Shown here: positions 15,328-48,913 of the stretch, one piece after another
Position numbering within the stretch: the stretch's first letter is position 1
Layout: each line of letters opens with the position of its first letter
From: a virus
IMG/VR virus record: IMGVR_UViG_3300024520_000063
Coordinates: 1 to 64,000 of that record
DNA length: 64,000 nucleotides
Strand: one strand, 5' to 3'
The notes under the pieces: generated by a model
Seen by the model: the letters and a program-made list of their open reading frames with translations, nothing else
The model's database searches: none
Told to the model about the DNA's origin: nothing
Made by a program: the position numbers and the translations under genes

Positions 15328-16245
15328 ATGACCGACCTCAAATCGATCCCAGAGGGGAAGATTGAGACAGTTGAGATTTCCCTCTTGCGGAACAACCCGC
15401 TCAATGAGGAAATCTACGGCACCGAGGATGTCGACCCTGATCTTTTAAGGTCGATTCAAGATCACGGTGTCGATACGCCGATTGAAGTTCTTCCGGACGG
15501 AACTATCATCAAGGGCCACCGCAGAAAGCTGCACGCAGAAGAGGCTGGGCTTACAGAGGTCCCAGTTATTGTCCGCCACGAGCTGAACTCTCCGGAAGAG
15601 GTTGGCTTCGCTCTGATCGAAGACAATCGCCACCAGAGAAACAGGACGAATATACAGAAGGTGCGTGAAATCATGTACCTGACAGGGATGCTCCAGACCC
15701 AGAACAGAATCCGCAAGGCTACGGGGCTTCCTGTTTATGAGGCTGATGCCCATACGGACGAAGAACTTATGGAGCTTTCCGGGATGAGCCGGGAGAGCTA
15801 CGAGCAGGTTGCCAGTCTCACCGAAAGCTATGCAGCCAGGTTTGGATCGTCAGCATCTCCCCAGGATGTGGCCTGTGATCACATCGGAGTCAGCAAAAAG
15901 ACGTTCATGCAGGGACAGAATGCCCTAAAGACAGCAGAGGCCTGGCGGAGTGCTGGAAACGACAAAAAGGCCGACCAGATCGAAGAGGCTCTCCATAAGG
16001 GTATCTCAACTGGATATCAGGTCGCCAAGAAGATCGGTCAGCCCGGCAAGAGGAGTGAGAAGAAAGTAATCAAGGCTAAGGCCAGCATAGAGTCGGTCAT
16101 TCTCACTCTTAAGAGTATGACGGCGGCACTTCACAAGGCTCGCGTCGCCATTCCAGAATCACTGCGTGATCAGCTCGACACCATCATCAATAAAATCAAT
16201 AGCATGAGGGAAGAACTTGAAAAGTCCGAACTCGACAATACTTGA
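15328..16245 (+). CDS. ParB-like nuclease domain protein
   Basis: N-terminal ParB/Sulfiredoxin-type block (DTPIEVLPDGTIIKGHRRKLHAEEAGLTEVPVIVRHE). Confidence 0.65.
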   Translation: MTDLKSIPEGKIETVEISLLRNNPLNEEIYGTEDVDPDLLRSIQDHGVDTPIEVLPDGTIIKGHRRKLHAEEAGLTEVPVIVRHELNSPEEVGFALIEDNRHQRNRTNIQKVREIMYLTGMLQTQNRIRKATGLPVYEADAHTDEELMELSGMSRESYEQVASLTESYAARFGSSASPQDVACDHIGVSKKTFMQGQNALKTAEAWRSAGNDKKADQIEEALHKGISTGYQVAKKIGQPGKRSEKKVIKAKASIESVILTLKSMTAALHKARVAIPESLRDQLDTIINKINSMREELEKSELDNT

Positions 16246-18496
16246 GGGCGACAGCCTGCAAGTACTCAAAGGCCTGCCTGATAACTCATTCCAGTGCTCC
16301 GTAAGCTCGCCTCCTTACTGGAATTTGCGCAACTATCAAGTCGATGGACAGATAGGGCTTGAGCCAACCGCACGCGAATTCATCCAGAATCTCGTATCTG
16401 TTTACTCAGAACTAAAGAGGGTTCTCCATCCGTCTGGTATTGCCTGGATTAACATAGGCGACAACTACGCCGGTGGAGGAAACAAGCGAGGCAAGGGTAG
16501 TCCGATATCCAGCAAACAGTCCAGTAATGCCGGATGCACTGGCCAGCTTGCGGATGTGCCAATAGTAGAAGATCTTCCACGGAAGAACATGAATGGAATG
16601 CCATGGAGATTTGCCTTTGCAATGCAGGATGACGGCTGGGTCCTCCGAGATGCGATAATTTGGCAGAAAAAGAATCCGATGCCTACGAGCCAAAAAGATA
16701 GATGTACGAACTGTTACGAGTACATCTTTCAGTTCACGAAGGGTCCAAAGTACTTCTTTGATATGGAGTCTGTGAGAGAGCCTGCCAGATATGGAGCTGG
16801 GGAGAACTTTCGGAGTTCGTCATATCTCAATGATAAGTCTCACAACAACAGCCAAGACCGGTCAGGATCGACCGAAGGAGGGATTCCGGGCAAGGGTGGA
16901 ACGCGAGTGCCTAGGAACATCAGAAGCTGGGCAACCCAAGGCTATAAAGGTGCTCACTTTGCTTGTGTTGACGAGGAAACCCAGTGCTTGACCAAAGAAG
17001 GATGGAAGTCTCAAGATCAAATTAAGCCGGGTGATGTCGCCGCCCAGTACAACATGGAGAGCGGCCTCTTGTCCTGGGCTGAAGTTGAAGACGTAGCGAG
17101 ATACGATGTTTCTGACCAAGACATGGTTTCTGCCGAATGCCGTGACTTGTCAATGCTTTTGACTCCTAACCACAGAACGATAATCTCCAGAAGAAGATCG
17201 AGAGGAAAAGGCCATCACCCTCCGACCATAATCGAAGCTGAGAATCTTAGTGATGGCCACAGAATACCAGTCTCTGCCGACTGGGATGATGGCGATCATG
17301 ATCAAACCATGGGAGGGGTAGAGTGGGCAGAACTGATAGGATGGTACGTTGCGGAAGGGTACGAAAACAAGAAATCGTGGTCTGTGGATATATATCAAAG
17401 CAGATCAGCAAATCCGGAAAAGGTCGAGAGGATTCGGCATCTTCTGGATTACGTGGATGCCGAGTACGAAGAGACTCAATCTGAGAGGAAATACAAAAAT
17501 CGCACATGCAGCATGTCTTCATTCAGAATAACTGGTCACGCGGCCATAAAAATAAGAAGCATGGTCCCAGGGAAAAGGCTTTCTTGGTCTTATATGGGGC
17601 TGTCAGCAGAAGAGATGAGGGCTCTTGTTGCTGGACTTATTGCTGGAGATGGACACATTCGGCCAGATGATGGCCGGGTGTGCTTTATCCAGAAGTCGGA
17701 CCACTGTATCGACTTGGTTCAAGCAATGGCTGTTAGGCTGGGATATGCTGTAAAGATCACAAAATCCCCTTCAACATGGAGAATGTACCTGACTGAAAAA
17801 AGATACATTTCTCTTCGTGGTACGAATGGAAGTGGCAGGAATATATCAACAAAGAAATATTCCGGAGTTGTGTGGTGTCCAAAACTACCCCATGGAACCT
17901 GGGTTGCTAGGAGGAATGGACGAGCATTCATAACTGGGAATACTTTTCCAATTTCGCTCCCTCTATGGTGTATTACGGCCAGTGCTCCGAAAGCAGGCGT
18001 CTGTGCTAAATGCTTCACGCCATACAAGCGAGTAGTCGAAAGCATCCGCAGGGCGACCCGTCCGGGAGAAAACACCAAGATCAAGATGCCGGACGGATGG
18101 GACACAGGAGAGGGCGGGCACGGCAGTTTTCATCGGGAAGGCAGAGAGAAAGGCCAGTACCGTGACACAGCAGAGATTGGAAACAGAGATCCGCAACGTC
18201 ACGTCACAGAAACAACCACCGTTGGGTGGGAACCTGGATGCACTTGCGATTGCGGAACTGATTTCCCAGCAATTCTGGATCCCTTCTCAGGGGTCGCCAC
18301 TACAGGACTGGCCTGTTCGCGCCTCCGATGCCACTACGTGGGAATCGAACTTAATCCAGAGTATGCACAGATGTCGCGGGACAGAATCAAGGACGATCTG
18401 ATCAAGGGATTCGATCCGAACCCACATGCCGTGAACCTTAATCTGGGAACTGGTATCGACTTATGTCAGGAAAACGTGTCACAATTTAATTACTAA
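16217..18496 (+). CDS. beta-class amino-DNA methyltransferase (N6A/N4C), intein-containing
   Basis: motif IV SPPYWNLRNY near N-terminus and motif I DPFSGVATTG near C-terminus (beta-class order); central insertion with intein/LAGLIDADG blocks. Confidence 0.75.
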   Translation: MKSPNSTILEGDSLQVLKGLPDNSFQCSVSSPPYWNLRNYQVDGQIGLEPTAREFIQNLVSVYSELKRVLHPSGIAWINIGDNYAGGGNKRGKGSPISSKQSSNAGCTGQLADVPIVEDLPRKNMNGMPWRFAFAMQDDGWVLRDAIIWQKKNPMPTSQKDRCTNCYEYIFQFTKGPKYFFDMESVREPARYGAGENFRSSSYLNDKSHNNSQDRSGSTEGGIPGKGGTRVPRNIRSWATQGYKGAHFACVDEETQCLTKEGWKSQDQIKPGDVAAQYNMESGLLSWAEVEDVARYDVSDQDMVSAECRDLSMLLTPNHRTIISRRRSRGKGHHPPTIIEAENLSDGHRIPVSADWDDGDHDQTMGGVEWAELIGWYVAEGYENKKSWSVDIYQSRSANPEKVERIRHLLDYVDAEYEETQSERKYKNRTCSMSSFRITGHAAIKIRSMVPGKRLSWSYMGLSAEEMRALVAGLIAGDGHIRPDDGRVCFIQKSDHCIDLVQAMAVRLGYAVKITKSPSTWRMYLTEKRYISLRGTNGSGRNISTKKYSGVVWCPKLPHGTWVARRNGRAFITGNTFPISLPLWCITASAPKAGVCAKCFTPYKRVVESIRRATRPGENTKIKMPDGWDTGEGGHGSFHREGREKGQYRDTAEIGNRDPQRHVTETTTVGWEPGCTCDCGTDFPAILDPFSGVATTGLACSRLRCHYVGIELNPEYAQMSRDRIKDDLIKGFDPNPHAVNLNLGTGIDLCQENVSQFNY
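16985..17941 (+). mobile_element. intein with LAGLIDADG homing-endonuclease domain inside the methyltransferase gene
   Basis: starts Cys (CLTKEGW), contains LIGWYVAEGY and LVAGLIAGDGHI (two LAGLIDADG blocks), ends ...ITGN followed by Thr; splicing would restore HFATFP, matching HPAVFP of the paralogous MTase at 26922. Confidence 0.65.
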
Positions 18497-32589: not shown

Positions 32590-32812
32590 ACGCAGACGCC
32601 GCGCGGCGGCCTACCGATCGTCGCGCGGAATCGGCTACCCCGGATTGTTGAACGGCATTCACGCCTGACAATCGGGAGGCCTTACAACCTGACTCGCTCA
32701 ACGATATCGACTACCGGCAATTACATAGTTGCCGGTTGCCGGTATCGTGGGGTTTCGATGCCCGCCCTGGCGACTACCTTATCAACCGGGCATCACATCA
32801 GGAGATTTTGAG

Positions 32813-33343
32813 ATGAGTTTGCGAAACCTAGTTGAACGCGACGAGGCGAACGGCGACATTCAGTATTCGGGTCGCCAGGTGTCGTATCGGAATCGGGACG
32901 ATAAGGCCGATTTCGCAATTCGACGATTAGATCTTGGCGCGGGGAAAACGACCCCGTCCGTTGAGTCAGTTTGCGAATCAATCGCAACTGGCCAGATCTC
33001 TGAGGTTACTCTGTCTGCAGCACTCGCGGACGCATCAGGCGCAGTCTCAGACCGGTTGACGTCTTCGCAGACGGTTACCGGCAAGCGCAACCTGTCCCGC
33101 CTGGGTCATTCCCTCGCGGAGGAATTGGGCGTGACGATTGAGGCGGAGGTGCCTGAACCTCCCCGCAATCCGACACCCGAACCCCGCCAGGCCACCAACG
33201 GCGACATCACGCCGGAAATGATCAGTCAGGCTACCAAACCGGAATTGCTCAAAGCGCTCCGCGAGCGCGGAATCCCGGTTGACGGTAAATCTAAGGTGGA
33301 CGATGTCCGCGCCCTGGCAACCTCCGAACTGGTGACAGTCTGA
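32813..33343 (+). CDS. hypothetical protein with C-terminal SAP/Rho-N-like HeH motif
   Basis: RBS aggaga; C-terminus ELLKALRERGIPVDGKSKVDDVRAL resembles SAP/Rho_N DNA-binding motif. Confidence 0.45.
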   Translation: MSLRNLVERDEANGDIQYSGRQVSYRNRDDKADFAIRRLDLGAGKTTPSVESVCESIATGQISEVTLSAALADASGAVSDRLTSSQTVTGKRNLSRLGHSLAEELGVTIEAEVPEPPRNPTPEPRQATNGDITPEMISQATKPELLKALRERGIPVDGKSKVDDVRALATSELVTV

Positions 33344-33478
33344 ACCAGTTCAGCGGGCGCGAGGGTTTTCCCGCGCTAGCGTCCCGAATCCCGCCAGGGT
33401 AACACCTGGCGGGGTTTTCTCATGCGCCAAGGCGATTGGCGTACGGGAAAACCTACCTCAAACCCAGGAGACAAAACC

Positions 33479-34276
33479 ATGCAACGTATGCCGAAAGACC
33501 GGCGCAGACAGTCTACAAAACAGGGAGGCCGCAAACCCGATGCGGGCATTGTCCCCGCAATTGCGGTCAAGATTGAGGCGGACGGAAACGGTAAACATGT
33601 CCGCCGGTATCGCGAGGGATCCCGCGTCCTAACATCAACCGGAATTATCCCGCCAGCCGTTGGGCGCAGATTGTTGTTGGAGGCTGGATCTGGCGATTCT
33701 GACGCCAGCCTAACGGCGCGGGAAGACGCGCAGACATCAAACCGCAATGAACTGCGCGTTGAGGTGAACGGACATCGGCGCAGAACTGCGATTGCGATTC
33801 AACGCAAACTATCGGATATGGGGATCCCGCATTCAATCACCAGTCATCCAGACGATTGCCGCGCGGATTGTTTCGGTTGGGTTGTTCGGGGATCCGATAA
33901 TGCCCGCCAGGCTTTTCTATTCTGGTGTCAACGTTCGCGGAAAACTCGCGGGCAATTCCAGGCCGATACCGAGCTTGCGACACCACATGGAACCGGCACG
34001 GACGGACATCAAACCCCAGTTGGCAAGATGCAAGCGCGGGATCCCAACCGGCCGCGAGTGACTACGGACGGAAATGCCATCGCGGCAAATGCCCGCCAGG
34101 CCGCAAGATCTCAAACAATGCGGATTGAGGCTGAACGCAGAGCGAACAACCGGCGCAAAGCGGACGGATTGCGCGAGGCGGAGAAAACCGCGAGGCGCGA
34201 GGCGAAGCGTACGGAAATCACAATCCAGGCTATCCGCAACGGAGGTTTGCCGGATTGCTTGATCTTCCAGGGATGA
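33479..34276 (+). CDS. Arg-rich hypothetical protein in GC-rich segment
   Basis: RBS aggagacaaaaccATG; coding assignment uncertain because all frames are open in this GC-rich stretch. Confidence 0.3.
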   Translation: MQRMPKDRRRQSTKQGGRKPDAGIVPAIAVKIEADGNGKHVRRYREGSRVLTSTGIIPPAVGRRLLLEAGSGDSDASLTAREDAQTSNRNELRVEVNGHRRRTAIAIQRKLSDMGIPHSITSHPDDCRADCFGWVVRGSDNARQAFLFWCQRSRKTRGQFQADTELATPHGTGTDGHQTPVGKMQARDPNRPRVTTDGNAIAANARQAARSQTMRIEAERRANNRRKADGLREAEKTARREAKRTEITIQAIRNGGLPDCLIFQG

Positions 34277-34576
34277 TACTCGCGACAATTCAACACGTCC
34301 TGCCCGCGCTGGCATGTGATCAGCGCGGGCATTTTTCGTATCGGGACACAATGCCCAACCGGCAACCTGGACAGCGTACGCAATCCACCTGGACAACACG
34401 CAACCGGCAACAATCCACACTCGCGACCTGGATCCCGTTCGTTCATGTGAACGGCACAATTACTGAACGCGCGATCGTTCGTATCAACAATGGACCTGAA
34501 CATACGTCAGGTTGTGGACACGCGGAGAGCGCCGGCTCCGGCGCAGATAAGATAGATCCAGATTCCTATGAGATAA

Positions 34577-34610
34577 CCCCTCATGGGAACGAAACCCCCT
34601 CATGGGAACC
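34577..34610 (+). promoter_or_regulatory. two tandem copies of CCCTCATGGGAAC motif immediately upstream of a start codon
   Basis: direct reading. Confidence 0.6.
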
Positions 34611-34615
34611 AGGTC

Positions 34616-34786
34616 ATGAATCTCACCGCAGTTCAGTACGAATCAATCTGTGCTCTGATCGCGTGTCGTGGGAAAGAATCTGCCATCAAACAGGTATCAC
34701 ACTTCCTGGATGGAGAAGATCTGGATGCGGCTAAGGCCTTTATCGACAAGGCTGATGTCGATGAAGATACCAGGCATATCAAATAG
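34616..34786 (+). CDS. small protein (56 aa)
   Basis: start directly after motif. Confidence 0.4.
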   Translation: MNLTAVQYESICALIACRGKESAIKQVSHFLDGEDLDAAKAFIDKADVDEDTRHIK

Positions 34787-34800
34787 TCCCTCATGGGAAC
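34787..34800 (+). promoter_or_regulatory. CCCTCATGGGAAC motif
   Basis: direct reading; ATG follows 6 nt later. Confidence 0.6.
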
Positions 34801-34806
34801 GAAACC

Positions 34807-34941
34807 ATGCTTACAGCAGAACAGATCAGCTTGATCATCGACTCTGAGGCAGACAGGATTAATCCTGTCCATCACCCTGAGTGTGAATGCTATGAATGCG
34901 TCTGCGAGTACGAATCTATGGCGCAGTTTGAAGAGAACAAC
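34807..34941 (+). CDS. small Cys-rich protein (44 aa)
   Basis: HPECECYECVCEY. Confidence 0.35.
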
Positions 34942-34945
34942 TAGA

Positions 34946-35036
34946 CCCCTCGTGGGAACCGATGCTCCCGGTGCGACCGACGATATGACTCATGGGAACC
35001 AGGCGATGGGTTCCCTTCCTGTTCCCTCATGGGAAC
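34946..35036 (+). promoter_or_regulatory. motif variant CCCTCGTGGGAACC, then CTCATGGGAACC-aggcgat-GGGTTCCC hairpin, then third motif copy
   Basis: direct reading; stem GGGAACC/GGTTCCC. Confidence 0.6.
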
Positions 35037-35058
35037 GTAATTTTCAGGAGACGTAGCG

Positions 35059-35592
35059 ATGTTTCGCAAGATTCTGACTCTCGGCTTAGGGGCAGCGTGG
35101 TCCTTCCTTCAGGCTAATCAGGACAATCTGTCCTCCTTCGCCAAAGGTTACACGGCTGCAATGCTTCGCGTGGCATGTGGCCAAGTCACAGTGAAAGATG
35201 CACAGGAAGCGGTCAATGACCGGTACACGTGGATCACAGTAGTGATGAATGGGGAAATGGTCGCGTTCCTGCCTGTCCCTCATGGGACTCCGGCGGAAGA
35301 TGCCGTGCAGTTCGCTTGGGAGAATACCCAGCATGGGAACCGATGGTATTGGGACACCAGGCCAGGCGTAAAGGTTGCTCCGACTCACGTGGGGACAATC
35401 CGATCGACAATGGTCGGGGACTCATTCATCTATGACGGAAAACGGTATCTCGTCGCCCCTGCAAGCTTCCCGTGTGTCGATAGCATTCCACTGGTCGGGA
35501 TGACTCCGGAATTGCTGGGTGCAGACTCCAGCGGGTCGCTCGTTCGCGATCGTAATGGTGTCGAATGCTTCGCCTGTCTGGGTGAAGACTAG
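35059..35592 (+). CDS. hypothetical protein
   Basis: 177 aa, RBS caggagacgtagcgATG. Confidence 0.5.
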   Translation: MFRKILTLGLGAAWSFLQANQDNLSSFAKGYTAAMLRVACGQVTVKDAQEAVNDRYTWITVVMNGEMVAFLPVPHGTPAEDAVQFAWENTQHGNRWYWDTRPGVKVAPTHVGTIRSTMVGDSFIYDGKRYLVAPASFPCVDSIPLVGMTPELLGADSSGSLVRDRNGVECFACLGED

Positions 35593-35794
35593 AAGCACGA
35601 GGTGTGACCGAAAATCATGTTTGTGGGAACAGAGTGCCGGTCGTCCCTGTCATTGAGGGAACGCAAACGCAATGTTCGCAGGTCAATAACAGACCGCATT
35701 GCTGCGACCGGCACGGATCCGCAGGTTTGCCGGACCCCTGCGGTGTCAGCTTGATACTCTCATTTGAGAGGGATCCAATTCCGGCTCATTTTAA

Positions 35795-35870
35795 CCCTCA
35801 TGGGAACGGAGGCGATGCCGTTCCCCTTAATCCCTCATGGGAACCAGGCGATGGTTCCCCAATCAGGAGA
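35795..35870 (+). promoter_or_regulatory. two motif copies each followed by hairpin (GGGAACGG/CCGTTCCC and GGGAACC/GGTTCCC) plus RBS
   Basis: direct reading. Confidence 0.6.
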
Positions 35871-35879
35871 CGATGCAGT

Positions 35880-36260
35880 ATGAGAATCGACGGTATTGCC
35901 ATAGGGCGCGAATCGGCTGACAAGATCAGCTTGCATCTGGATCGAGTCCACCAAATAGGTGAGGAACTCTCTGTCGAGGAATTCATCGAAGCGATTCGTG
36001 GGAACCTGAGTGTTGAACTTCTGGTTTCAGGGGAACGAGTATTCGTCAATTGTGCAGACACTCCGTGCATGACAACGAATGCCGACCTGAATCGGGAATT
36101 CGGGGACAGAAACCTCTTCTTTGCCGTGCTGCAGGAATCCCCGAGATCGTATCTCTTCTGTGACGATCCAGAGGATGGGATGCACTGTCACTTGATTTTC
36201 CCGGATTACGATGCGGCGGCTGAGGCGGCGGCTGGATTGTTGAATCCGATCATCTACTAG
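35880..36260 (+). CDS. hypothetical protein (126 aa)
   Basis: in-frame ATG after motif/RBS inside ORF 35604..36260. Confidence 0.45.
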   Translation: MRIDGIAIGRESADKISLHLDRVHQIGEELSVEEFIEAIRGNLSVELLVSGERVFVNCADTPCMTTNADLNREFGDRNLFFAVLQESPRSYLFCDDPEDGMHCHLIFPDYDAAAEAAAGLLNPIIY

Positions 36261-36411
36261 CGCCTCGCGAGAACCCGATCAATCCCTGGCTGACGACACA
36301 GTTGGAAGATCGGTGGCGTCGGGAAACCATCGGACAAGAACCTAAAGCAGTCCCTCGCCTGACTCCCGCTGACTGAACCGAGACGAAGATTGTTACCGAC
36401 GTATGACATAA

Positions 36412-36425
36412 CCCCTCATAGGAAC
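36412..36425 (+). promoter_or_regulatory. motif variant CCCCTCATAGGAAC
   Basis: direct reading. Confidence 0.5.
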
Positions 36426-36539
36426 AGGATCCAATCCCTTTCCCCCCGGCTCTCACCAGATGGCACTGTGAGCCTAACACTGCCGATGATAAAGCGGCCT
36501 GGTGGGAGAGTGATCTGGATTCCTGTTCCCTTTCTTTAA

Positions 36540-36591
36540 CCCCTCATGGGAACCTGGCGATGGGTTCCTTCCCTTCATGAGAACCAGGAGA
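36540..36591 (+). promoter_or_regulatory. motif + hairpin (GGGAACC tggcgat GGGTTCC) + partial motif + RBS aggaga
   Basis: direct reading. Confidence 0.6.
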
Positions 36592-36598
36592 CGATGCG

Positions 36599-37066
36599 AT
36601 GACTGAGACCAAAACCCGTGAATGGGCACTCGGTGATGAAATCTGCGACATGCACTACGGGTTGCCAGATCACACCTGGGATCGCGGGTCGCAAATTCCG
36701 ATCACAACGCGGAATCACGTTCGTTTGCAGTACCTGAACGACGCGCACGATCTGGTCGAAAAAGCTTTGGAGTCTTCTGGGTCACTGTCTTGTTTTTACA
36801 CAAACAAGATGGCCGTTGTCGTCGGTGTTCCAGTTTCGGATGCTTGGTACAAAGTGGCGTACTCTTATGACTGCCACACGTTCGGGATGTTTGAGTTTCA
36901 GCCCATTCCCGTTCAGGAGCCTGAGCCGGAACCCGAGAAGCCCAGGAAGACGATCTTTACCACTGCCGAGATCGCCAAGCTTCTCAAGGTTGCGCCTCGA
37001 ACCGTGTCAAAATGGGAAGAGTATGTATATCGATGCACGATTGAAGAACTGGAAGACAACGCATAA
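36599..37066 (+). CDS. hypothetical protein (155 aa)
   Basis: ORF with RBS, follows motif. Confidence 0.5.
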   Translation: MTETKTREWALGDEICDMHYGLPDHTWDRGSQIPITTRNHVRLQYLNDAHDLVEKALESSGSLSCFYTNKMAVVVGVPVSDAWYKVAYSYDCHTFGMFEFQPIPVQEPEPEPEKPRKTIFTTAEIAKLLKVAPRTVSKWEEYVYRCTIEELEDNA

Positions 37067-37260
37067 TCCCCTCATGGGTCGGGATTCCCCTGTCTGACAT
37101 AGTCCCTGCGGTCATCACCCGCAATGCTGCCCTACGAAGCCTGCAATCGCTTTCTGTCTCTGCTCGCATCCGAGACAGGGCTACGCTGTGCATACCGGGC
37201 CGTGCATAAAGATGGCAACGCATACTATTCAGACAGGGAGATCTCGACCCATGAACTAAG

Positions 37261-37275
37261 ACCCTCATAGGAACC
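37261..37275 (+). promoter_or_regulatory. motif variant ACCCTCATAGGAACC directly upstream of ATG
   Basis: direct reading. Confidence 0.55.
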
Positions 37276-37281
37276 CGAGCG

Positions 37282-37527
37282 ATGCACGATTATGAGATAT
37301 CAGTGCCGACAGACTCCACAGAATCAGAGTGGATGGTTTCTCAGGTCACACACGCCAGAAGCCTCCATGATGCATCAGTCTATATGGCCCGGTATCTAAC
37401 CAGATTCCGGGTTCGGAGTGTCTCTCACAATGAGACATTTGACTACGGAGTCATTCATCATCCGAATCATGGGTATGCGTACCCTTCACTCAAGGCAGTC
37501 ATATGTCCAGAGAAAACAACGCTATGA
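37282..37527 (+). CDS. hypothetical protein (81 aa)
   Basis: ORF after motif. Confidence 0.45.
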   Translation: MHDYEISVPTDSTESEWMVSQVTHARSLHDASVYMARYLTRFRVRSVSHNETFDYGVIHHPNHGYAYPSLKAVICPEKTTL

Positions 37528-37709
37528 AAACCTTTGAGATCCAAGTTCCCATCTCTGATGGCGAGTGGGTAACGTGGGATACGTGTGAATCGAAGACTAC
37601 AAATGGGCCTAAGGGGTTGGCGGGCCGATTCTGCCTCAAGAAATTCCGCATCATTGATGTTGAGACTGGGGAATCTGAAGAATACGAAATGAAGACTCTT
37701 CCGTGGTAG
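37503..37709 (+). CDS. hypothetical protein (68 aa)
   Basis: ORF overlapping previous stop region. Confidence 0.35.
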   Translation: MSRENNAMKTFEIQVPISDGEWVTWDTCESKTTNGPKGLAGRFCLKKFRIIDVETGESEEYEMKTLPW

Positions 37710-37723
37710 GCCCAATCCCTCAT

Positions 37724-37739
37724 AAGAACCAGGGCGTGA
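37724..37739 (+). promoter_or_regulatory. motif variant TCCCTCATAAGAACC
   Basis: direct reading. Confidence 0.45.
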
Positions 37740-37870
37740 CGGAACAGTCGACGTCCTTCGCGAGAGCATGTGTAGGATAGGTGGGAGGTGAAGATGCCAG
37801 GCCGCAAGACCTGTCTGAACCGTCCTTGAAATACCACCCGTGCTCTTTCCCTTAAATCAGGAAAACAGTC

Positions 37871-38140
37871 ATGGAAAATCAGTACCACGCCAAAATGACA
37901 GAACTCAGACATCAGGTTTTCGAACTGGCTAATGAAATGGCACTGGATGATCTGGGTCACGTTGCCACAACTCTACACCACGCATCCAACACCATCACAA
38001 GAGCCATAAACTCTCTCGAATCGGGAAGTGTCGATCTTCAATGCCTCATAGAAGATGGACTTCGCGGACTAGGTGGAATTATTGCGCTGGAACACTCACA
38101 GGAACACGACCATGTCCAGAATCATCGGCAAAGTGATTGA
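37871..38140 (+). CDS. hypothetical protein
   Basis: 89-aa ORF. Confidence 0.4.
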   Translation: MENQYHAKMTELRHQVFELANEMALDDLGHVATTLHHASNTITRAINSLESGSVDLQCLIEDGLRGLGGIIALEHSQEHDHVQNHRQSD

Positions 38141-38270
38141 CAGTGGATCCGACAATGCCTGGCCCACGACAGCCGCCAGTGACATTGTCTTCGGTGTTAT
38201 CTTCGGATCAGCCCTTGTGATGATCCTGGGTTTCGGGATCGCGAGTCTGATCCTCAGGCTTCCCTTGTAG
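38113..38270 (+). CDS. small membrane protein (paralog A)
   Basis: MSRIIGKVIDSGSDNAW...hydrophobic C-terminus; paralog of 38680 gene. Confidence 0.4.
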
Positions 38271-38282
38271 GAAATAGTGGGT

Positions 38283-38495
38283 AGTTTTTCTCACAACACA
38301 GGAGACAATCCAATGCCCGAATTCGAATTTGTGGCCCACGAGACCCGCAGGCAGAAAGTCAGGTACTGGGTTGTTGCTGACAGCCTGGAAGAGGCGACCG
38401 AGCTTGCTGAAAGGGGCGAAACGGACAACGAAGAGGACGTGGAATGCCTAGCCGTCTACAGCAGAAGCGTGAAGCACATCAAGCCTTGGAAATAA
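38283..38495 (+). CDS. hypothetical acidic protein
   Basis: ORF 38277..38495. Confidence 0.4.
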   Translation, partial: SFSHNTGDNPMPEFEFVAHETRRQKVRYWVVADSLEEATELAERGETDNEEDVECLAVYSRSVKHIKPWK

Positions 38496-38679
38496 AACAC
38501 ACTGGGTTAGATTTGGCCATCCGGCTCAGTGATGACGACACGATCGACGAAGTTGACCTGTTGGAGATGGTCGCCGTCCTTGCGGTTGACTAGCCGATGT
38601 CCGCGCTGGAACCGATGTCCAATCTTGGAAGACAGACCATGCCGTTGACCTCTCGCACACCGATTAGGAGACAGACCAT

Positions 38680-38860
38680 GATCGGAAAAGTCATCAAGAG
38701 CGGTGGCGGTCCATACCGCGAACGTAACAGATTCGCCGCAGATGTAGTCATAGGAACGACTTGCGGCGTATTCCTCCTCATGGCTCTCACTGCCGCCACG
38801 ATCTGGATTAGCGCCAGCCTTGGCGCTGGAGGAAGCTTTACTACTGTACGTGTTCAGTAG
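38680..38860 (+). CDS. small membrane protein (paralog B)
   Basis: MIGKVIKSGGGPY... hydrophobic C-terminus; RBS ggagacagaccATG. Confidence 0.4.
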
Positions 38861-39017
38861 TAAAGTGCCCAATACGGAACCAGAGGTCCCACTCGGTAAC
38901 GAGTATATCTGTGTAAACTAAAGGCCAATTGTTCCAAAAAGCTGAGTTAGATCTGGCCATCCGGCTCAGCCCCGTGGCGGGCAGGCAGTGTGTTGCTGTC
39001 CTGTCCGCCACAATTTT

Positions 39018-39079
39018 ACCCTCATGAGAACCAGGCGATGGTTCTCTTTACCCCTCGTCAGAAACCAAGGAGACACGCG
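39018..39079 (+). promoter_or_regulatory. motif + covarying hairpin (GAGAACC aggcgat GGTTCTC) + partial motif + RBS aaggaga
   Basis: direct reading; compensatory G>A / C>T changes preserve stem. Confidence 0.6.
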
Positions 39080-39325
39080 ATGAATGCTGCACTCAGAACA
39101 ATCGATGCGATCGACGAACAGCTCGGAATTGCCTCTGTGGGGATCGAGTCCCTGCACGAAGGCAAATACCGGGACAAGATGCTCAGGGATGTCGTTCTGC
39201 TCCGCGAAACCCTGGCTGCTGCGAGGTGCTTTGAGCACTCTGTGGCCAGCAAGAGCACGAACATCGACTGGAAGTTCCTGCGACAGCAGCAGGCCGAGGC
39301 TCGGGAACTCTGTCACGCTGGATAG
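39080..39325 (+). CDS. hypothetical protein (81 aa)
   Basis: MNAALRTIDAIDEQ... Confidence 0.45.
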   Translation: MNAALRTIDAIDEQLGIASVGIESLHEGKYRDKMLRDVVLLRETLAAARCFEHSVASKSTNIDWKFLRQQQAEARELCHAG

Positions 39326-39363: not shown

Positions 39364-40461
39364 ATGGATAAGATTCAAGAAATGACACCTGAGCAAGAAC
39401 AGCAAATGGTTGAGTTCAGGGAAGAGTACCTTCAGATTGGACTGTCTACCGAACCCGCCAACAGAGAACTGGCAGAACAGGCCATTCAGTCAATCAGATC
39501 CAAGGCCCACAAGGAGTGCTCATCCTTCATGTGGTTCGACGGGATAGCGACAGCAGAATTATTCTTAAATATCGGGGCCAATCTCTGGGACAATCTCGGG
39601 GACAATCTCTGGGCCAATCTTAGTGACAATCTCGGGGCCAATCTCGGGGACAATCTCTGGGCCAATCTCAGGGCCAATCTCAGGGCCAATCTCTGGGCCA
39701 ATCTCGGGGACACTCTCTGGGCCAATCTTAGTGACAATCTCGGGGACAATCTCTGGGACAATCTCGGGTCCAATCTCGGGGCCAATCTCAGGGACAATCT
39801 CAGGGACAATCTCGGGTCCAATCTCGGGGCCAATCTCAGATTACACAGTCAGCTCGAAGGGCAAATGGAGTATTGGATTGCGTGGTACATGTTTCCTCAT
39901 AAATTCCTGAGGAACATTCATTCGGATTCCGACATGGAACATTTGAATGAGTGGGACTCAGTATTCCGATCGTGCTGCTGGTGGTGGCCATACGAAAACA
40001 CCACAATTGTTGCCGAAAGGCCCGCCTCGATCGTCAGAAACGAAGAGGGATTGCTGCATAATGAATCTGGACCTGCAATCTCGTGGCGAGATGGTTGGGA
40101 ACACTTTGCCTTGGAAGGCGTTAATCTGGATCGTCAAATCGTCATGGCTCCTGAGTCTCAATCGGTACAACAATTGGAATCAGAAGAAAACGAAGAGGTG
40201 CGTAGAATCAGAATCGAGCGATTTGGGGTTCTGCGGTATCTGGAAGAGTCTAACTCATCAGTCGTAGATACTCGTCGCAACGACATCGAAGCCACTTTTG
40301 AAATACTGGCCAATACGCCAAATGGCCAGCGATTAGTCACACACTGTCCCTCTACGGGAAGGCGTTATTTCCTTTCTATCCCAGAGCAGGTCGAAACCTG
40401 CGAACAGGCACAAGCTGTCCTGTGGGATGATCACGACATGAGAATTATAGGGAGAACGTAA
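39364..40461 (+). CDS. tetrapeptide-repeat protein (about 22 x [AD]NL[WGRS])
   Basis: 365-aa ORF with RBS aaaggagacaagtcATG; central 12-bp tandem repeats translate to ANLWDNLGDNLWANLS... Confidence 0.6.
   Translation: MDKIQEMTPEQEQQMVEFREEYLQIGLSTEPANRELAEQAIQSIRSKAHKECSSFMWFDGIATAELFLNIGANLWDNLGDNLWANLSDNLGANLGDNLWANLRANLRANLWANLGDTLWANLSDNLGDNLWDNLGSNLGANLRDNLRDNLGSNLGANLRLHSQLEGQMEYWIAWYMFPHKFLRNIHSDSDMEHLNEWDSVFRSCCWWWPYENTTIVAERPASIVRNEEGLLHNESGPAISWRDGWEHFALEGVNLDRQIVMAPESQSVQQLESEENEEVRRIRIERFGVLRYLEESNSSVVDTRRNDIEATFEILANTPNGQRLVTHCPSTGRRYFLSIPEQVETCEQAQAVLWDDHDMRIIGRT
39577..39839 (+). repeat. 12-bp tandem repeat array (consensus GMCAATCTCKGG), about 22 units
   Basis: direct reading. 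Confidence 0.9.
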
Positions 40462-41722: not shown

Positions 41723-42136
41723 TCGCCACCCGTCACGTATCCTGAGATTGTCTCCCTTGTGGTGCGTGGCGGGATTTTAATACCTCGCGTCAGCAATACG
41801 GTTGCCATGCACCGGTAAATGTGTGGCCGTCAAGCAGAAGGAGAGCGATATGACCTGTTATCACAATCACAATCTCTAACACAGGCAGAACGCCGCGTGT
41901 GGGAAAGCCCCACGGTCCCTGCCGGGTACTGTCATACTCGGAGAGCGGAGCACTACTTCACCGGACAGGGTGCGAGTAGGAGTCCAAGCGACTCAGTGAA
42001 AGCTGCTGGTGCAATTCCAGCCATGGGACTTCAGCCCGGATCAGTAGTTGCAGATTCAACGAAGCACAACACGCAAGCGTGAATCCACTACTGATTCGGG
42101 CTGTTTTTGTTTCTTCACCTCAGAAAGGAGTCTGTG

Positions 42137-42316
42137 ATGCTCGTACTCAGTAGAAAGCCAAATGAACAGATCGTGATTGCGGATGGCGAAATCGTGATCA
42201 CGCTACTTGAAATCAGAAAAGGATCAGTCAGACTGGGGATCGAAGCACCTCGTGATATCCCGGTTCACAGGCGAGAGGTGCAGACAATCATTGAATCTGA
42301 GGAGAAGGTGGCATGA
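42137..42316 (+). CDS. csrA: carbon storage regulator CsrA/RsmA homolog
   Basis: MLVLSRKPNEQIVIADGEIVITLLEIRKGSVRLGIEAPRDIPVHRREV aligns residue-by-residue with CsrA ([47 protein letters not shown]); RBS aaaggag. Confidence 0.85.
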   Translation: MLVLSRKPNEQIVIADGEIVITLLEIRKGSVRLGIEAPRDIPVHRREVQTIIESEEKVA

Positions 42317-45699: not shown

Positions 45700-46890
45700 G
45701 TGCTACACGAAATTATTCCTGCGACCCCGCGATTAGTCGAAAAGCTTGTAGCGAGAGAGAGGGATCCCGCAAGAACAGATCCACTACTGTGGGAAAAATC
45801 AGAAGACACTGAGATGTATATAGAAATAGCATCTCGCGAGACGGCCAAGCTGGTTTCCAGCGTAGATGTCATGCAGAGGAAAATCAGGGCGTTAAACGCA
45901 ACACAGAAGCCATCTTTCGGGAAAGCTCTAAGAGATTCTGCATATACTGCCTATAACGACGCAAAGCATCAATTGGATGAGGCTTACTACAACCTAACCT
46001 CGTTCAATATACCCGAACGTCGCAGCAGCCCGGTCGCTCGGACCAACAACACCAAGAAGATTTCGTATCTGAGCAACTCCGACTTCATAGAGCAGGAAAA
46101 GGTGATGATACACCGCTCATATAAGACGGTGTTCATCACAACAGAACCAATCGTAATCGAAAACATCAACCTTGGTGCTTTTGAGATTCATGTCAGGCCA
46201 CGTGTTGACTCGACAGCAGAGGCATACGCACTCAACCCCAACCCGGCAATCAGCAATCCAGTCGTTACCCACCCGAATGTGAAGAATAACACTGTCTGCC
46301 TGGGCGAAGGTAAAGATGCATACAACAAGGCCGTTATGGAAGGGCGTCTTTGCGATGCACTGCAAATTGCCTTATCCGTCGTGAGAAATTACGGGTGGAG
46401 AAATCCCTACCTGTCTATTAGCGAATGGTTTGGAGTCAACTGTGGATTCTGTGGCCACTTGAATACACCAAATAGAACATTTCAGTGCATCGACTGCAAA
46501 GTAAAGGGATGCAAAACCTGCGCTTACACAGGGACTGCTCGAAGATGCTACGAGTGCCATGAGTACAGGCTGGCCAATCCTCCAGACGAGTGCTACAGGT
46601 GCAGTCGAGAGGCTCATAATGAATGCCCGGACTGCAAGAAGAAAGTCTGCGGGAGATGCTGGATCGAAGATTCCTGCAATCTCTGCTATCGCAGAAACAA
46701 TCAAGCCTGCAACAGGTGCGAGCGTGTCACCCGGATAGACACGTGGCCAGATCCGTGTGCTGGATGTGAGGTACGTTTATGTGCTCTATGTATGGAGCAC
46801 GGAGTTTTGTGTCCTACGTGCTATCAGGGTCACCTCAATGAGAACCCGGATGTGGCACGACTTATTGGGAGTCTGCGAGATGACGACTAA
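45700..46890 (+). CDS. E2 (UBC)-like ubiquitin-conjugating domain protein with C-terminal Cys-rich zinc-ribbon array
   Basis: GTG start after RBS aggagac; VTHPNVKNNTVCLGEG matches E2 HPN(I/V)xxxGx(I/V)C active-site signature; C-terminal half has >20 Cys in CxxC pairs. Confidence 0.55.
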   Translation: MLHEIIPATPRLVEKLVARERDPARTDPLLWEKSEDTEMYIEIASRETAKLVSSVDVMQRKIRALNATQKPSFGKALRDSAYTAYNDAKHQLDEAYYNLTSFNIPERRSSPVARTNNTKKISYLSNSDFIEQEKVMIHRSYKTVFITTEPIVIENINLGAFEIHVRPRVDSTAEAYALNPNPAISNPVVTHPNVKNNTVCLGEGKDAYNKAVMEGRLCDALQIALSVVRNYGWRNPYLSISEWFGVNCGFCGHLNTPNRTFQCIDCKVKGCKTCAYTGTARRCYECHEYRLANPPDECYRCSREAHNECPDCKKKVCGRCWIEDSCNLCYRRNNQACNRCERVTRIDTWPDPCAGCEVRLCALCMEHGVLCPTCYQGHLNENPDVARLIGSLRDDD

Positions 46891-48013
46891 CAACAAACCT
46901 GTGTTCTCTCCGTCTGCATGGCAGAAATACATTCTGCTTCGAGACATGGGGGGCACTGAGATTTCCGCGATGGCGATCTGCTTTGACCCCGACGAACCGC
47001 TGAAAATCAACGATCTCTACGTGCCCGAGCAAACATGCAGCTCGGCCTACACTGAGTTCGATGACGACGCCTTGAGTGAGCTGTACGAGATGTATGGCCC
47101 GCAGATCGACCCGGATGACGACACCAAGCTCACCGGTCTGCATCCTTATCAGTTCAGCCGCATCTGGCTGCACACTCACCCAGGTCAGAGCGCAAAGCCT
47201 TCAGGGACCGACCACACCACATTCAAGGAGCGGTTCGGGCCTCCAGACTGGGCAGTTATGTTCATTCTGGCACGTGGGGGACAAACCCATTGCGAGCTTA
47301 AGGTTCGCAGTGAATCCGGTCTTGTTAACGCTCATGTCAGGCACGATTCCAGTGAGTGGGTCGACTGGAGCATGCCGTGCGTTCCGGTGAATCATGATGA
47401 ATTGAAGGAAATCTACAAGAAGAAAGTAAAAACCAGCCACGCGGCGGTGTCTTACGGCGGTGCGTGGAATGGCGGACACTCCTACACCACTCGTGGGGGC
47501 AAGCCAGGATACTACGCCAATGGAAAGTGGACCGAGTATGGGACTCAAGGGAAGTCCAACCAGACCGGCACAAAGAAGATTGAAGTTAACCAAAGAAACC
47601 AGAGAGAGCCACTCGACTTTGGCGACCTGGAATGGAGATACAAGCGTGAAGACCACTTCATGAAGCAGTATCTCCAGGATGTTTACGTGGACATCAAGAC
47701 ATGGGGAAATGCTGCCGACGTCATGAAGAGAGATGACTTTGAAGAAGTTTGGGCTCCGGACGACCAGGACTTCGCAATGTGGATGGACCAGAAGTGGCTC
47801 ATGGGTCGAGATTGCAAAATCGAATTCATCGACGAGAGCGAAGATGGAGAAGAGACCATATGGGAATGCTCTGCCCAGGAAGCGCAGATGCTTGTCCAGA
47901 AGAAAGTCATCGAGGACACGGACTTCGGAGAGTTTTTCGGTGCAGACAAAAAGGATGACGAAGACGATGAGGAATTGGATTTCTCTTTCCCTGGTCTGCA
48001 CATGTGGCAGTAA
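46880..48013 (+). CDS. JAB/MPN+ (JAMM) metallopeptidase domain protein
   Basis: IWLHTHPGQSAKPSGTDHTTF = HxHx7Sx2D JAMM motif with upstream Glu; overlaps upstream stop by 11 nt. Confidence 0.65.
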   Translation: MTTNNKPVFSPSAWQKYILLRDMGGTEISAMAICFDPDEPLKINDLYVPEQTCSSAYTEFDDDALSELYEMYGPQIDPDDDTKLTGLHPYQFSRIWLHTHPGQSAKPSGTDHTTFKERFGPPDWAVMFILARGGQTHCELKVRSESGLVNAHVRHDSSEWVDWSMPCVPVNHDELKEIYKKKVKTSHAAVSYGGAWNGGHSYTTRGGKPGYYANGKWTEYGTQGKSNQTGTKKIEVNQRNQREPLDFGDLEWRYKREDHFMKQYLQDVYVDIKTWGNAADVMKRDDFEEVWAPDDQDFAMWMDQKWLMGRDCKIEFIDESEDGEETIWECSAQEAQMLVQKKVIEDTDFGEFFGADKKDDEDDEELDFSFPGLHMWQ

Positions 48014-48058
48014 GGCTGGCTGTAACCGCTTAATGTTTCTCTAACGGAGGTGGAAGGT

Positions 48059-48913
48059 ATGCCGTCACTTAACAGGTTTTCTCGACAGGAGAGTATTGTC
48101 CCGGTTGAGAAGAAGACTCCGGTGACAATCATCGGGGTCGGAGCTATTGGACTTCAGCTCGCGAAGTTCATGGCCTCAATGGGAATCCCTCAAATCAGGT
48201 TGATCGACTTTGATGTAGTCGAAGATACCAACATCACTACGCAGGGATACACCGGATCGCAGCTGGGATTGCCCAAGGTGGAAGCCGCAAGGGATTCCAT
48301 CCATGCCATCGACGCGGACATCAAGGTCATCGCAGAAAATGACCGATGGAGACCGAAAACCAAGATTGATGGGGTCGTGTTCTGCTGCGTCGACTCGATC
48401 AAGGCTCGCGAGTGCATCTGGAAAGGCATCAAGAATAAGGTGGATTTCTTCTGTGATGCCAGAATGCTCGGTGAGGTCTTCCATGTGTACGCATGGATCA
48501 AAGGTGCCCCTCACGAAGACTACGAGCAGACGCTGTTCGCAGAAGAAGAGACGATCGCAGGCCAGTGTACCGCAGCAGGTACGATCTACTGTGCTGGCAT
48601 GGCCGCAGGTGCCATGTGTCACCAGTACACGCGATGGATCAGGGGTGTTCTGCCTCCCGATGTGAGCTGGTCCTGTGCTTTGCTGTCCAGCGAGCTTTCA
48701 GTCATCTCACGGGACTTCGTTGCTCCGCCAGAGGATACTGGAATGCTGGTCAAGGAAGTAATCGTCGAGAAGCCAGAAGAGGTTGCGACTCCTGTGGAAG
48801 AAGAGGCAGAAGAAGCCTCAGCTGAACCAGAACCGGTGCCCGCTCTGGCGGACCCTGTGGACGACTATGACGATGATGACTGGGACAGAGAACGAGAAGA
48901 GGACCGCTGGTAA
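48059..48913 (+). CDS. E1-like (ThiF/MoeB family) activating enzyme
   Basis: VTIIGVGAIGLQLAKFMASMGIPQIRLIDFDVVEDTNITTQ matches ThiF/MoeB Rossmann GxGxxG ... D.D.VE.SNL.RQ block; RBS ggaggtgg; followed by terminator. Confidence 0.7.
   Translation: MPSLNRFSRQESIVPVEKKTPVTIIGVGAIGLQLAKFMASMGIPQIRLIDFDVVEDTNITTQGYTGSQLGLPKVEAARDSIHAIDADIKVIAENDRWRPKTKIDGVVFCCVDSIKARECIWKGIKNKVDFFCDARMLGEVFHVYAWIKGAPHEDYEQTLFAEEETIAGQCTAAGTIYCAGMAAGAMCHQYTRWIRGVLPPDVSWSCALLSSELSVISRDFVAPPEDTGMLVKEVIVEKPEEVATPVEEEAEEASAEPEPVPALADPVDDYDDDDWDREREEDRW

Follow-up and report, generated by a model that had tools for sequence, protein, structure and literature searches.

Here we describe a repeated regulatory element in the genome of an uncultured tailed phage. 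The DNA analysed is a stretch of 64,000 nucleotides (positions 1 to 64,000 of IMG/VR record IMGVR_UViG_3300024520_000063), referred to below as the window. A 13-nucleotide motif, CCCTCATGGGAAC, recurs there on one strand, at the heads of groups of small genes, and is often fused to a short hairpin. Judged by comparative sequence analysis, motif and hairpin together make up a selected, portable regulatory cassette of a small group of uncultured phages. We take it to be selected and lineage-specific because two other phages, with unrelated genes, have conserved it and because it is not a generic host repeat. As to its function, we tentatively favour, at rather less than even probability, a portable transcription-start signal: RNAs would begin GGGAAC, and the hairpin would serve both as a 5' cap and as a weak terminator. 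We hold this model no more firmly because the phage has no recognisable polymerase or sigma factor and the motif shows no sigma-70 pattern.

Anatomy and conservation of the motif and its hairpin

How far does the motif exceed chance? With up to two mismatches it matches the window 24 times, on the + strand every time. Dinucleotide-preserving shuffles (n = 100) gave 1.95 ± 1.24 matches; none reached 24, and the maximum was 5. The cluster of co-oriented copies described in an earlier reading made from the letters alone (the sequence-only reading) is thereby confirmed. Sixteen of the 24 matches fall in 34578–39031, and 14 of the 16 are intergenic. Seven copies are exact, four have one mismatch and three have two (table 1); two more two-mismatch copies, at 35277 and 35328 within the 35059–35592 gene, are doubtful. 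The coordinates given in the sequence-only reading hold to within 1–7 nt. Its ‘37724’, though, should read 37717, at ‘37067’ there is no more than a partial copy (CCCCTCATGGGTCGG), and 36572 is absent from its list. Copies are confined to 34.5–39.1 kb, and none lies in the 30.8 kb of the left flank. Copies of CCCTGATGGGAAC at 43051, 43192 and 44794 lie within coding sequence (Pro-Asp-Gly-Asn/Lys) and were not counted as members. At 60158–60182 (+), inside the open reading frame (ORF) 59994–60224, the sequence GGGAACGAAACCGATTCATGGGAAC agrees at 22 of 25 bases with the tandem unit 34585–34609 and could be what is left of a cassette after its uptake into coding sequence.

The information content is concentrated in exactly 13 positions, with weaker conservation of TAA(C) upstream and CAGG downstream. 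The flanks of the copies are otherwise unrelated, and the borders of the conserved 13 nt are sharp. Bases 8 and 9 form a dip in information: they are the sole variable positions of the core, and only G or A occurs at them. The U that precedes base 8 is invariant. Variants include CCCTCAT versus GCCTCAT and, in the phage contig L122 described below, CCCCTCTGCATTTGGAGA. Four copies, reading GAGAAC or AAGAAC, are without GGA: those at 36572, 37717 and 39019, and one in the strain L106.

Five motif copies are fused to a hairpin of 7–8 bp, the 5' arm of which is motif bases 8–14 (table 1). The full loop is AGGCGAT in four of the five and TGGCGAT in the other, while the loop core GGCGAT is unchanged in seven of seven independent hairpin copies, those of another phage (L123) included. 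The sequence-only reading had reported six hairpins with a constant AGGCGAT loop; the hairpins are real, but they number five and their loop is not wholly constant. A sixth copy, at 36413, heads a hairpin of 109 nt that starts at motif base 9, with a minimum free energy of −52.9 kcal/mol (z −5.1; 0 of 200 shuffles folded as well). Without exception the stems start at base 8 or 9, and none reaches into CCCTCAT.

Does the stem exist at the level of RNA? A covariance model, a search that the sequence-only reading had proposed, was built from two of the five hairpins. In the window it retrieves exactly the five short hairpins. Elsewhere it retrieves those five and two extra in L106, as well as two in L123, and no other match at E < 0.01 in 173 kb of related sequence. 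Covariation was measured on a model-fitted alignment of eight distinct sequences, in which 96.4% of stem cells are standard pairs. Two of the seven stem pairs change on both sides (G–C to A–U, and C–G to G–C), and the closing pair is G–U in three of the eight sequences. Only 2 of 500 shuffles matched this covariation, and when the partner is slid by one column pairing falls to 68–71%. The compensatory change already seen at 39026 (GAGAACC/GGTTCTC) is genuine, and GGGAACGG/CCGTTCCC is a second. Since the sample is small and the alignment was fitted to the model, the support that these figures give to an RNA-level stem is, in our view, moderate. The copy at 35024 can fold on itself by other means: it is preceded by GTTCCC, which forms a 6-bp inverted repeat with GGGAAC. 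The spacing of the GGGAAC...GTTCCC arms varies from 9 to 12 nt.

Which other phages carry the motif? A scan of JGI metagenomes for two copies 4–34 nt apart returned three contigs, L122, L123 and L124. The last comes from the same phage, but its upstream gene has diverged. Its identity to the window begins 16 nt before the first motif; the tandem motifs at the array start are identical, and all upstream sequence differs, terminator included, although an equivalent (different) terminator and a palindromic hairpin are kept there. L122 and L123 are different phages. Their blastn similarity to the window is limited to the motif and hairpin segments, their genes are unrelated to those of the window, and by tblastx they share a single 20-residue stretch only. 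In L122, four tandem copies (spacing 15, 23 and 23 nt) head a gene array that follows a non-coding leader with 40-nt repeats; one copy stands 8 nt before a second ATG. L123 has two units, each consisting of motif plus hairpin, U-tract, motif, ribosome-binding site and ATG. Its hairpins have the same loop on a stem GGGAACGG/CCGTTCC(U), and its U-tracts are clear (UUUUAUUU, UUUUCU), whereas those of the window are weak. The second copies of L123 have GTTCCC in front of them and are able to self-fold. Two further contigs encode distant relatives of proteins from the array's neighbourhood, L109 (found through the DUF6745 protein) and L117 (through the 155-aa protein encoded in the array); neither has a motif family.

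The near-identical strain L106 (99.8–100% to the window) differs by a whole cassette. Between the copies at 35795 and 35832 it has an extra ORF of 117 aa with its own motif and ribosome-binding site, and this insertion is bounded by a 52-nt direct repeat of the motif–hairpin unit. The motif copies are accordingly sites at which cassettes are gained or lost.

Is the motif a generic repeat? A paired-motif scan of 185,579 species genomes gave three matches, all of them unrelated tandem or coding repeats, and two scans of IMG/VR gave isolated chance single matches only and no motif repeat family. These scans rule out a generic host repeat, including a repeat of the repetitive extragenic palindromic (REP) kind spread over unrelated genomes, which the sequence-only reading had named as the finding that would overturn it. 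In Rfam, neither motif nor hairpin has a match at the gathering threshold or at any E up to 5. In the searchable literature the motif sequence is found only in unrelated PCR primers, and blastn of the array against phage records gave no nucleotide match.

What the cassette might do

The sequence-only reading offered a choice of promoter, RNA-processing or translation-initiation element, or binding site for a regulator or RNA polymerase. That it is a regulatory element is supported; the choice among these has been narrowed only in part. Four features suggest that the motif defines 5' ends. First, the stems start at base 8 or 9. Second, the sole variable core bases are the purines 8 and 9, purine-only variation being as expected for initiating nucleotides. 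Third, non-coding RNAs as well as ORFs have the motif in front of them, once per gene group and not once per gene. Fourth, terminator-like structures end a few bases before the next motif and leave no room for another promoter. A compact promoter is the simplest element of this sort. The tandem copies at the start of the array, two in the window and four in L122, likewise count for a start signal.

How would such a signal work? The array is hypervariable and consists of small genes and small structured RNAs; the 13-mer would be the core of an expression signal that heads every one of its transcription units, and would most likely be read on the DNA as a compact, promoter-type start. (T)AAC-CCCTCAT would be the recognition and melting part, with the A/T-rich TCAT lying between the C run and the G run. 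Transcription would start at the purine pair, bases 8–9, and the RNAs would begin (G/A)(G/A)GAAC. In the five short cases and the one long case the RNA 5' end would then be the first strand of the stem, giving a flush 5'-terminal stem-loop. The same stem, with a pyrimidine- or U-rich tail, would act as a weak terminator or insulator against transcription from upstream. Where the motif stands 6–7 nt before an ATG, its GGGA/AGGA could double as a weak ribosome-binding site; otherwise AGGAGAC follows. The direct repeats of 13–40 nt would be the recombination points at which gene cassettes are added or deleted.

Several observations weigh against this transcription-start model. Pfam, PHROGs and NCBIfam recognised neither an RNA polymerase, whether single-subunit or multisubunit, nor a sigma factor in about 99 kb of phage sequence, which runs in window coordinates from about −30.8 kb to about +68 kb and is roughly the whole genome. 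This region takes in 30.8 kb to the left of the window, reached through an IMG/VR contig in which three encoded proteins are 100% identical to proteins of the flank, and a further 4 kb on the right-hand side, reached through a JGI contig. The scan covered every ORF of 400 aa or more and most of those of 100 aa or more, and Pfam RNA_pol (PF00940) matched none of the scanned ORFs of the window or its two flanks. There are no sigma-70 −35/−10 elements at the motifs; 32.5–46 kb holds 6 promoter-like sites against 8.6 expected, and inspection of the flanks found no hexamers shared among the copies. It would be odd for a promoter to be fused to its own terminator-like hairpin and to have another copy immediately after it. 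The spacing from CCCTC to GGG is 4 nt shorter than in promoters of the T7/T3 type. Finally, the self-folding copies in L123 and at 35024 imply that an RNA, or a DNA palindrome, spans the whole motif.

Several known signals were considered and rejected. Second promoter elements were judged by eye in the flanks of all copies: for sigma-70, extended −10, extracytoplasmic function (ECF; GGAAC-N16-CGT), sigma-54, sigma-28 (TAAA-N15-GCCGATAA), sigma-32 and MotA-box-type promoters alike, no shared second element stands at a fixed distance, and the start codons are too close. The ATG of the motif or of the hairpin loop does not serve as a start codon, the frames being inconsistent among copies. Hammerhead and other small ribozymes have no Rfam match here; nor do nut-like boxA/boxB elements, for which the copies are in any case too numerous. 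LexA-type GAAC/GTTC boxes were set aside on account of the varying arm spacing.

Might the motif act instead within the mRNA? A start-associated element, bound by a phage or host factor beside the ribosome-binding site and steering translation or stability, is a real but minor possibility. The binder could be the ribosome or the phage's own CsrA, which would recognise GGA, with the hairpins masking or presenting GGGAAC. The phage does encode a bona fide CsrA, at 42137–42316 (+) (Pfam E 5e-21; RNA-binding residues L2, L4, R6, V42 and R44 kept). A CsrA dimer has two RNA-binding surfaces, which copy pairs spaced 19–37 nt apart would suit. Yet in all five hairpins the bases at the GGA position are in the stem and not in the loop, the reverse of good CsrA/RsmA sites, whose GGA core is best displayed in a hairpin loop or unpaired; four copies have no GGA at all; and the conserved CCCTCAT and AAC are left unaccounted for. 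Placement speaks on both sides. The motif is a 13-nt asymmetric sequence in a single orientation and in a non-structural region, and the final copy of each unit is 6–22 nt upstream of the ATG. In three genes without another ribosome-binding site, its GGGA/AGGA lies 8–9 nt before the ATG. But the distance from motif to ATG ranges from 6 to more than 140 nt, and at least six copies have no ORF behind them: what comes next is a further copy, a hairpin or a non-coding RNA. This disfavours a purely translational element. The G–U pairs and covariation of the hairpins agree with action as RNA, as does the close parallel with the start-associated sequence (SAS) and extended SAS (ESAS) elements of mycobacteriophages (PMC3203893). 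Against it, the terminator-like hairpins upstream would starve such an element of transcripts.

We consider it rather unlikely that the cassette is read by a novel factor, whether a small promoter-specificity factor that redirects the host polymerase to a single-element, G+C-rich promoter of 13–17 nt or an RNA-binding factor that marks phage messages by their 5' ends. With either factor, the invariant GGCGAU loop of the fused hairpin would be a second recognition site. Together with CsrA, a mimic of the L1 stalk behind one motif copy and suppressor-type tRNAs (described below), the array would form a programme for seizing control of host RNA and translation.

Distinctly unlikely, in our judgement, is a DNA operator, an asymmetric site for a repressor or regulator that blocks transcription of the array in the manner of the L5 stoperators or the P1 C1 operators. 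It would explain a 13-bp asymmetric, co-oriented sequence in very short intergenic gaps, the tandem copies at the array head (spacing 15–23 nt in L122, 19 nt in the window) and the palindrome GTTCCC-N4-GGGAAC in L123 and at 35024, and it would need no phage polymerase. A candidate binder is the 155-aa helix-turn-helix protein (36599–37066), encoded in the array behind its most elaborate motif cluster, but its helix-turn-helix matches are weak (E 0.001–0.009, about 20 residues). An operator leaves unexplained the stem start at base 8, the covariation, the tolerance of G–U pairs and the invariant loop core. Arms spaced 9–12 nt apart are unlike a rigid dimer site, the copies are restricted to 4.5 kb instead of genome-wide, and there are no detectable sigma-70-type promoters to control.

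Could the 5' ends arise by cleavage? Long array RNAs might be cut by an endonuclease between U7 and G8, the stem protecting the new 5' end. Such processing would account for stems that begin at base 8 or 9, for the invariant U at −1, for motifs ahead of ORFs and non-coding RNAs alike and for motifs right behind stop codons. We nevertheless think it improbable, and more so than an operator: the tandem copies that have no hairpin (34578/34597 and the four of L122) would be purposeless, most copies have no protecting stem, no candidate nuclease is recognisable, and the terminator-like hairpins upstream speak against long polycistronic precursors. That the copies have no regulatory role at all, being recombination scars, hitch-hikers or a small selfish repeat homogenised by gene conversion, would suit a cassette indel exactly between repeat copies and their clustering in a single hypervariable region, but is very improbable given the sharp limits of the 13-nt conservation amid unrelated flanks, the retention of the motif in phages with no other nucleotide similarity, its strict placement relative to stops, ribosome-binding sites and ATGs, and a hairpin that covaries around an invariant loop core.

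Why does the choice between these readings matter? Short lineage-specific signals before orphan genes are a way in which many phages time their takeover genes and shuffle them between genomes. The signal described here stands out by its compactness and its high G+C content, and belongs to a phage lineage with neither a cultured relative nor a recognisable polymerase or sigma gene. If, as the transcription-start model has it, the motif is a promoter, there has to be an unrecognised specificity factor. Should it act in RNA, the still unexplained SAS elements of mycobacteriophages would be joined by a second start-associated code, with candidate partners, CsrA and the helix-turn-helix protein, in the same genome. 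In practical terms, the motif offers a convenient marker with which to find this phage group and its gene cassettes in metagenomes.

The array and the genome around it

With gene calls taken from contigs of the same sequence, the array resolves into eight units, the motif standing at the heads of gene groups (table 1). Named by their motif copies, the units are 34578/34597; 34788; 34947/34987/35024; 35795/35832; 36413/36541/36572; 37262; 37717; and 39019. No motif precedes the genes that overlap or abut their upstream neighbour (37503, 38112, 38313, 38444 and 38678), and every copy is co-oriented with the genes. Between the terminator that closes the upstream gene and the first motif lies a 250-nt non-coding leader. 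The long hairpin (36421–36529), together with UUUCUUU, directly precedes the motif at 36541. Behind 37717 comes the L1-stalk-like domain, which lies just before the ATG at 37871; five tightly packed genes follow the domain. The region 38940–39050 has a folding z of −5.8, and the hairpin of the 39019 copy is followed by a degenerate copy (about 39049–39063), AGGAGAC, an ATG at 39080 and more genes.

Table 1. Motif copies, fused hairpins and terminator-like structures of the array (window coordinates).
Feature	Position	Strand	Remarks
Intrinsic-terminator-like hairpin and T-run	34301–34331	+	Closes upstream gene 33422–34276
Two exact motif copies, 19 nt apart	34578–34590, 34597–34609	+	Array start; ATG 34616 is 6 nt after the second
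Exact motif	34788–34800	+	Fills 20-nt gap between TAG stop 34784–34786 and ATG 34807
Motif CCCTCGTGGGAAC, one mismatch (CGTG)	34947–34959	+	2 nt past stop of gene 34807–34944
Degenerate motif GACTCATGGGAAC, two mismatches, with hairpin GGGAACC-AGGCGATG-GGTTCCC	34987–35015	+	Hairpin 34994–35015
Exact motif, GTTCCC before, AGGAGAC and ATG 35059 after	35024–35036	+	
Exact motif with hairpin GGGAACGG-AGGCGATG-CCGTTCCC	35795–35825	+	Hairpin 35802–35825
Exact motif with hairpin GGGAACC-AGGCGAT-GGTTCCC, then AGGAGAC and ATG 35880	35832–35859	+	Hairpin 35839–35859
Motif CCCTCATAGGAAC, one mismatch (CATA), heading 109-nt hairpin	36413–36529	+	Hairpin 36421–36529 ends GUUCC, then CUUUCUUU
Exact motif with hairpin GGGAACC-TGGCGATG-GGTTCCT	36541–36569	+	Hairpin 36548–36569; closing G–U pair
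Motif variant CCTTCATGAGAAC, two mismatches	36572–36584	+	1 nt before AGGAGAC, 14 nt before ATG 36599
Motif variant CCCTCATAGGAAC, one mismatch (CATA)	37262–37274	+	7 nt before ATG 37282; overlapping gene follows
Motif variant CCCTCATAAGAAC, two mismatches	37717–37729	+	8 nt past stop; 34 nt before L1-stalk-like RNA domain 37763–37846
16-bp G+C-rich hairpin and AAUUUUA, terminator-like insulator	38974–39011	+	Ends 7 nt before motif 39019
Motif variant CCCTCATGAGAAC, one mismatch (CATGAG), with hairpin GAGAACC-AGGCGAT-GGTTCTC	39019–39046	+	Hairpin 39026–39046; compensatory G>A / C>T
Possible outlying copy CCCTCAGGGGAAC, one mismatch	61370–61382	+	Spacer between two tRNA genes; membership uncertain

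The genes at 34616, 34807 and 37282 were described in the sequence-only reading as starting close behind the motif with no Shine-Dalgarno sequence. They do start 6–7 nt after it, but the absence was overstated, since the motif's own GGGA/AGGA sits 8–9 nt before the ATG, an acceptable position for a weak ribosome-binding site. What was taken there for an extra cassette (AGGAGAC...ATG) is the ordinary ribosome-binding site of the phage and its start codon. The array may, as was also proposed, be an early one.

Other repeats and remnants occur in and around the array. Past the TAG stop of gene 35880–36260, and in another frame, 36262–36377 (+) encodes ...NPINPWLTTQLEDRW..., homologous to the C-terminal part of one continuous L123 protein (tblastx 55% over 20 residues, E 8e-5); it could reflect a programmed frameshift or be a remnant left by frameshifting. 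A second repeat family is the palindromic hairpin AGCGCCA-GCCT-TGGCGCT, with 21-mers at 28826, 38807, 42417, 48926 and 61578, one of the five directly following a tRNA. A compensated variant, GCGCCGG-CT-CCGGCGC, occupies 34523–34542, some 35 nt ahead of the first motif; at the same place the form in L124 is the canonical one. A 28-nt hairpin repeat, CTGRGTTAGATYTGGCCATCCGGCTCAG, has two copies (38502–38529 and 38942–38969). A 31-mer, CG.CT.CGCCCGTGTAACCGAAAAAAGCCCT, occurs at 53902, 55613 and 61221, always on the + strand and intergenic in at least two of the three cases; it could be another class of signal.

Three observations concern RNA and translation. The self-contained 84-nt RNA domain at 37763–37846 (+) matches positions 2129–2212 of bacterial 23S rRNA, the L1 stalk, at 57.6 bits, where the gathering score is 50 (E about 1e-14). 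The closing helix, AGAGCAUG...CGUGCUCU, is the domain's own and departs from the consensus by paired changes; the domain looks like a phage mimic of the binding site of ribosomal protein L1 and not a random rRNA fragment. Before the CsrA gene lies a 390-nt ORF-free, strongly structured region, 41725–42112 (+; z −3.4), which holds several GGA motifs, ends in an intrinsic-terminator-like hairpin and UUUUU, and may be a small RNA partner or sponge of CsrA. Of two tRNAs (+), at 61103–61172 and 61503–61578, one has the anticodon CTA (amber-suppressor type; labelled Pyl by ARAGORN) and the other the unusual anticodon ATC. Between them, at about 61423–61502 (+), are a T-arm-like GGGGGTTCAAATCCCTCC and a terminal CCA, in a stretch that no tool called a tRNA. 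The structural genes are intact standard-code ORFs and give no sign of genome-wide stop-codon recoding.

The rest of the genome is that of a tailed phage with HK97-type capsid, portal and protease; its portal is at most 26% identical to that of any phage on deposit. Contigs with identical genes occur in several metagenome assemblies, the longest of 99.3 kb. The left flank encodes tail proteins, a lipase, glycosyltransferases, exonucleases, a helicase, Rad52- and RuvC-like proteins, a NUDIX protein, methyltransferases and the large terminase. In a homologue search, a 1166-aa protein fragment drew mostly matches to a fibre domain of wide occurrence. A short way before the array, 32729–33343 (+) encodes a 204-aa protein with very weak similarity (E 0.1) to a chain of initiation factor IF3 of solved structure. 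Downstream, the N-terminal half of a DUF6745 protein (gene 39364–40461) contains about 30 tandem 12-nt repeats (39520–39879, +) that encode four-residue protein repeats; a distant homologue in L109, an A+T-rich IMG/VR phage, has an even longer array of the same period. A DNA methylase at 16217–18496 (+) is interrupted by a LAGLIDADG domain, possibly an intein or homing endonuclease, and JAB-like and ThiF/E1-like genes lie side by side at 46757–48913 (+).

Comparison with known systems

How does the cassette compare with signals known from other phages? Promoters of the T7 group are likewise compact, strand-specific and conserved, and end in GGGA at the presumed start. The T3 promoter reads AATTAACCCTCACTAAAGGGAGA, and the RNA from T7 phi10 starts with the stem-loop GGGAGACC-ACAAC-GGTTTCCC, a stem-loop from +1 that resembles the stems from base 8 or 9 here. 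Copies here read TTTTAACCCTCATGGGAAC, and TTAACCCTCA is identical to positions −14 to −5 of the T3 promoter. Conservation in the T7 group extends over about 23 bp (−17 to +6), as against 13 strong and about 7 weak positions here. Positions −4 to −1 are A/T-rich in the T7 group, whereas TCAT, which is not TATA-like, precedes GGG here at the shortened distance from CCCTC already mentioned. No gene for a T7-like polymerase was detectable in the roughly 99 kb of phage.

The L5 stoperators and P1 C1 operators share with the motif an asymmetric sequence of 13–17 bp, many copies, a location in short intergenic gaps and an orientation with transcription. They are genome-wide sites in double-stranded DNA, read by a known repressor, whereas the copies here occupy 4.5 kb only and are tied to RNA-type hairpins. 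Stoperators are mentioned in the report on the SAS of Cluster K mycobacteriophages, which have the consensus GGGATAGGAGCCC with an AGGAG core and lie almost always 3–9 nt from the ATG (PMC3203893).

The SAS and ESAS elements are closer in form. Like the motif, they are asymmetric and 13 nt long, occur in 11–19 copies, in a single orientation and in the non-structural half only, and are absent from the host. Both kinds of element are conserved before unrelated genes and near start codons, and about half of the copies have an adjacent inverted repeat. The differences are of sequence, position and structure. SAS contains AGGAG, and the motif, which has only GGGA/AGGA, is unrelated to it. Against the 3–9 nt of SAS, three copies here are 6–7 nt from the ATG and the others are 14–41 nt away, up to more than 140, or have no ORF. 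The ESAS repeats are without support for RNA pairing and now seem to contain SigA promoters; here the hairpin is of RNA type and covaries.

With the T7 phi10 promoter and its 5' stem-loop, the closest analogues are the PeSL (promoter-early stem-loop) cassettes of T4-type phages (PMC2839356, PMC4122927). In both systems, if the transcription-start model holds, a start signal and a stem-loop that would attenuate transcription from upstream are followed by a ribosome-binding site and an ATG. Both lie in hyperplastic regions of small orphan genes, and both, whatever the mechanism here, are recombination points at which gene cassettes come and go. The PeSL hallmarks of orphan-gene flanks and indel boundaries are found here, in the 117-aa ORF of L106 and in the cassettes of L122 and L123 with their unrelated genes. 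The attenuating stem-loop may have a counterpart in the stable, G+C-rich stems of 7–8 bp, although clear U-tracts accompany them only in L123. PeSL has a textbook sigma-70 promoter, with −35 and −10 hexamers 16–18 nt apart, and an A/T-rich upstream region, which the motif has not. Its conserved block is about 100 nt long as against 13–20 nt here, and the stem-loop of the present cassette shares bases with the motif itself and keeps its loop core invariant. Phage-specific start or regulatory cassettes in repeated copies are a known kind of element; what is new in this one, besides the want of a recognisable reader, is its sequence and the fusion of the motif to a hairpin with an invariant core in its loop.

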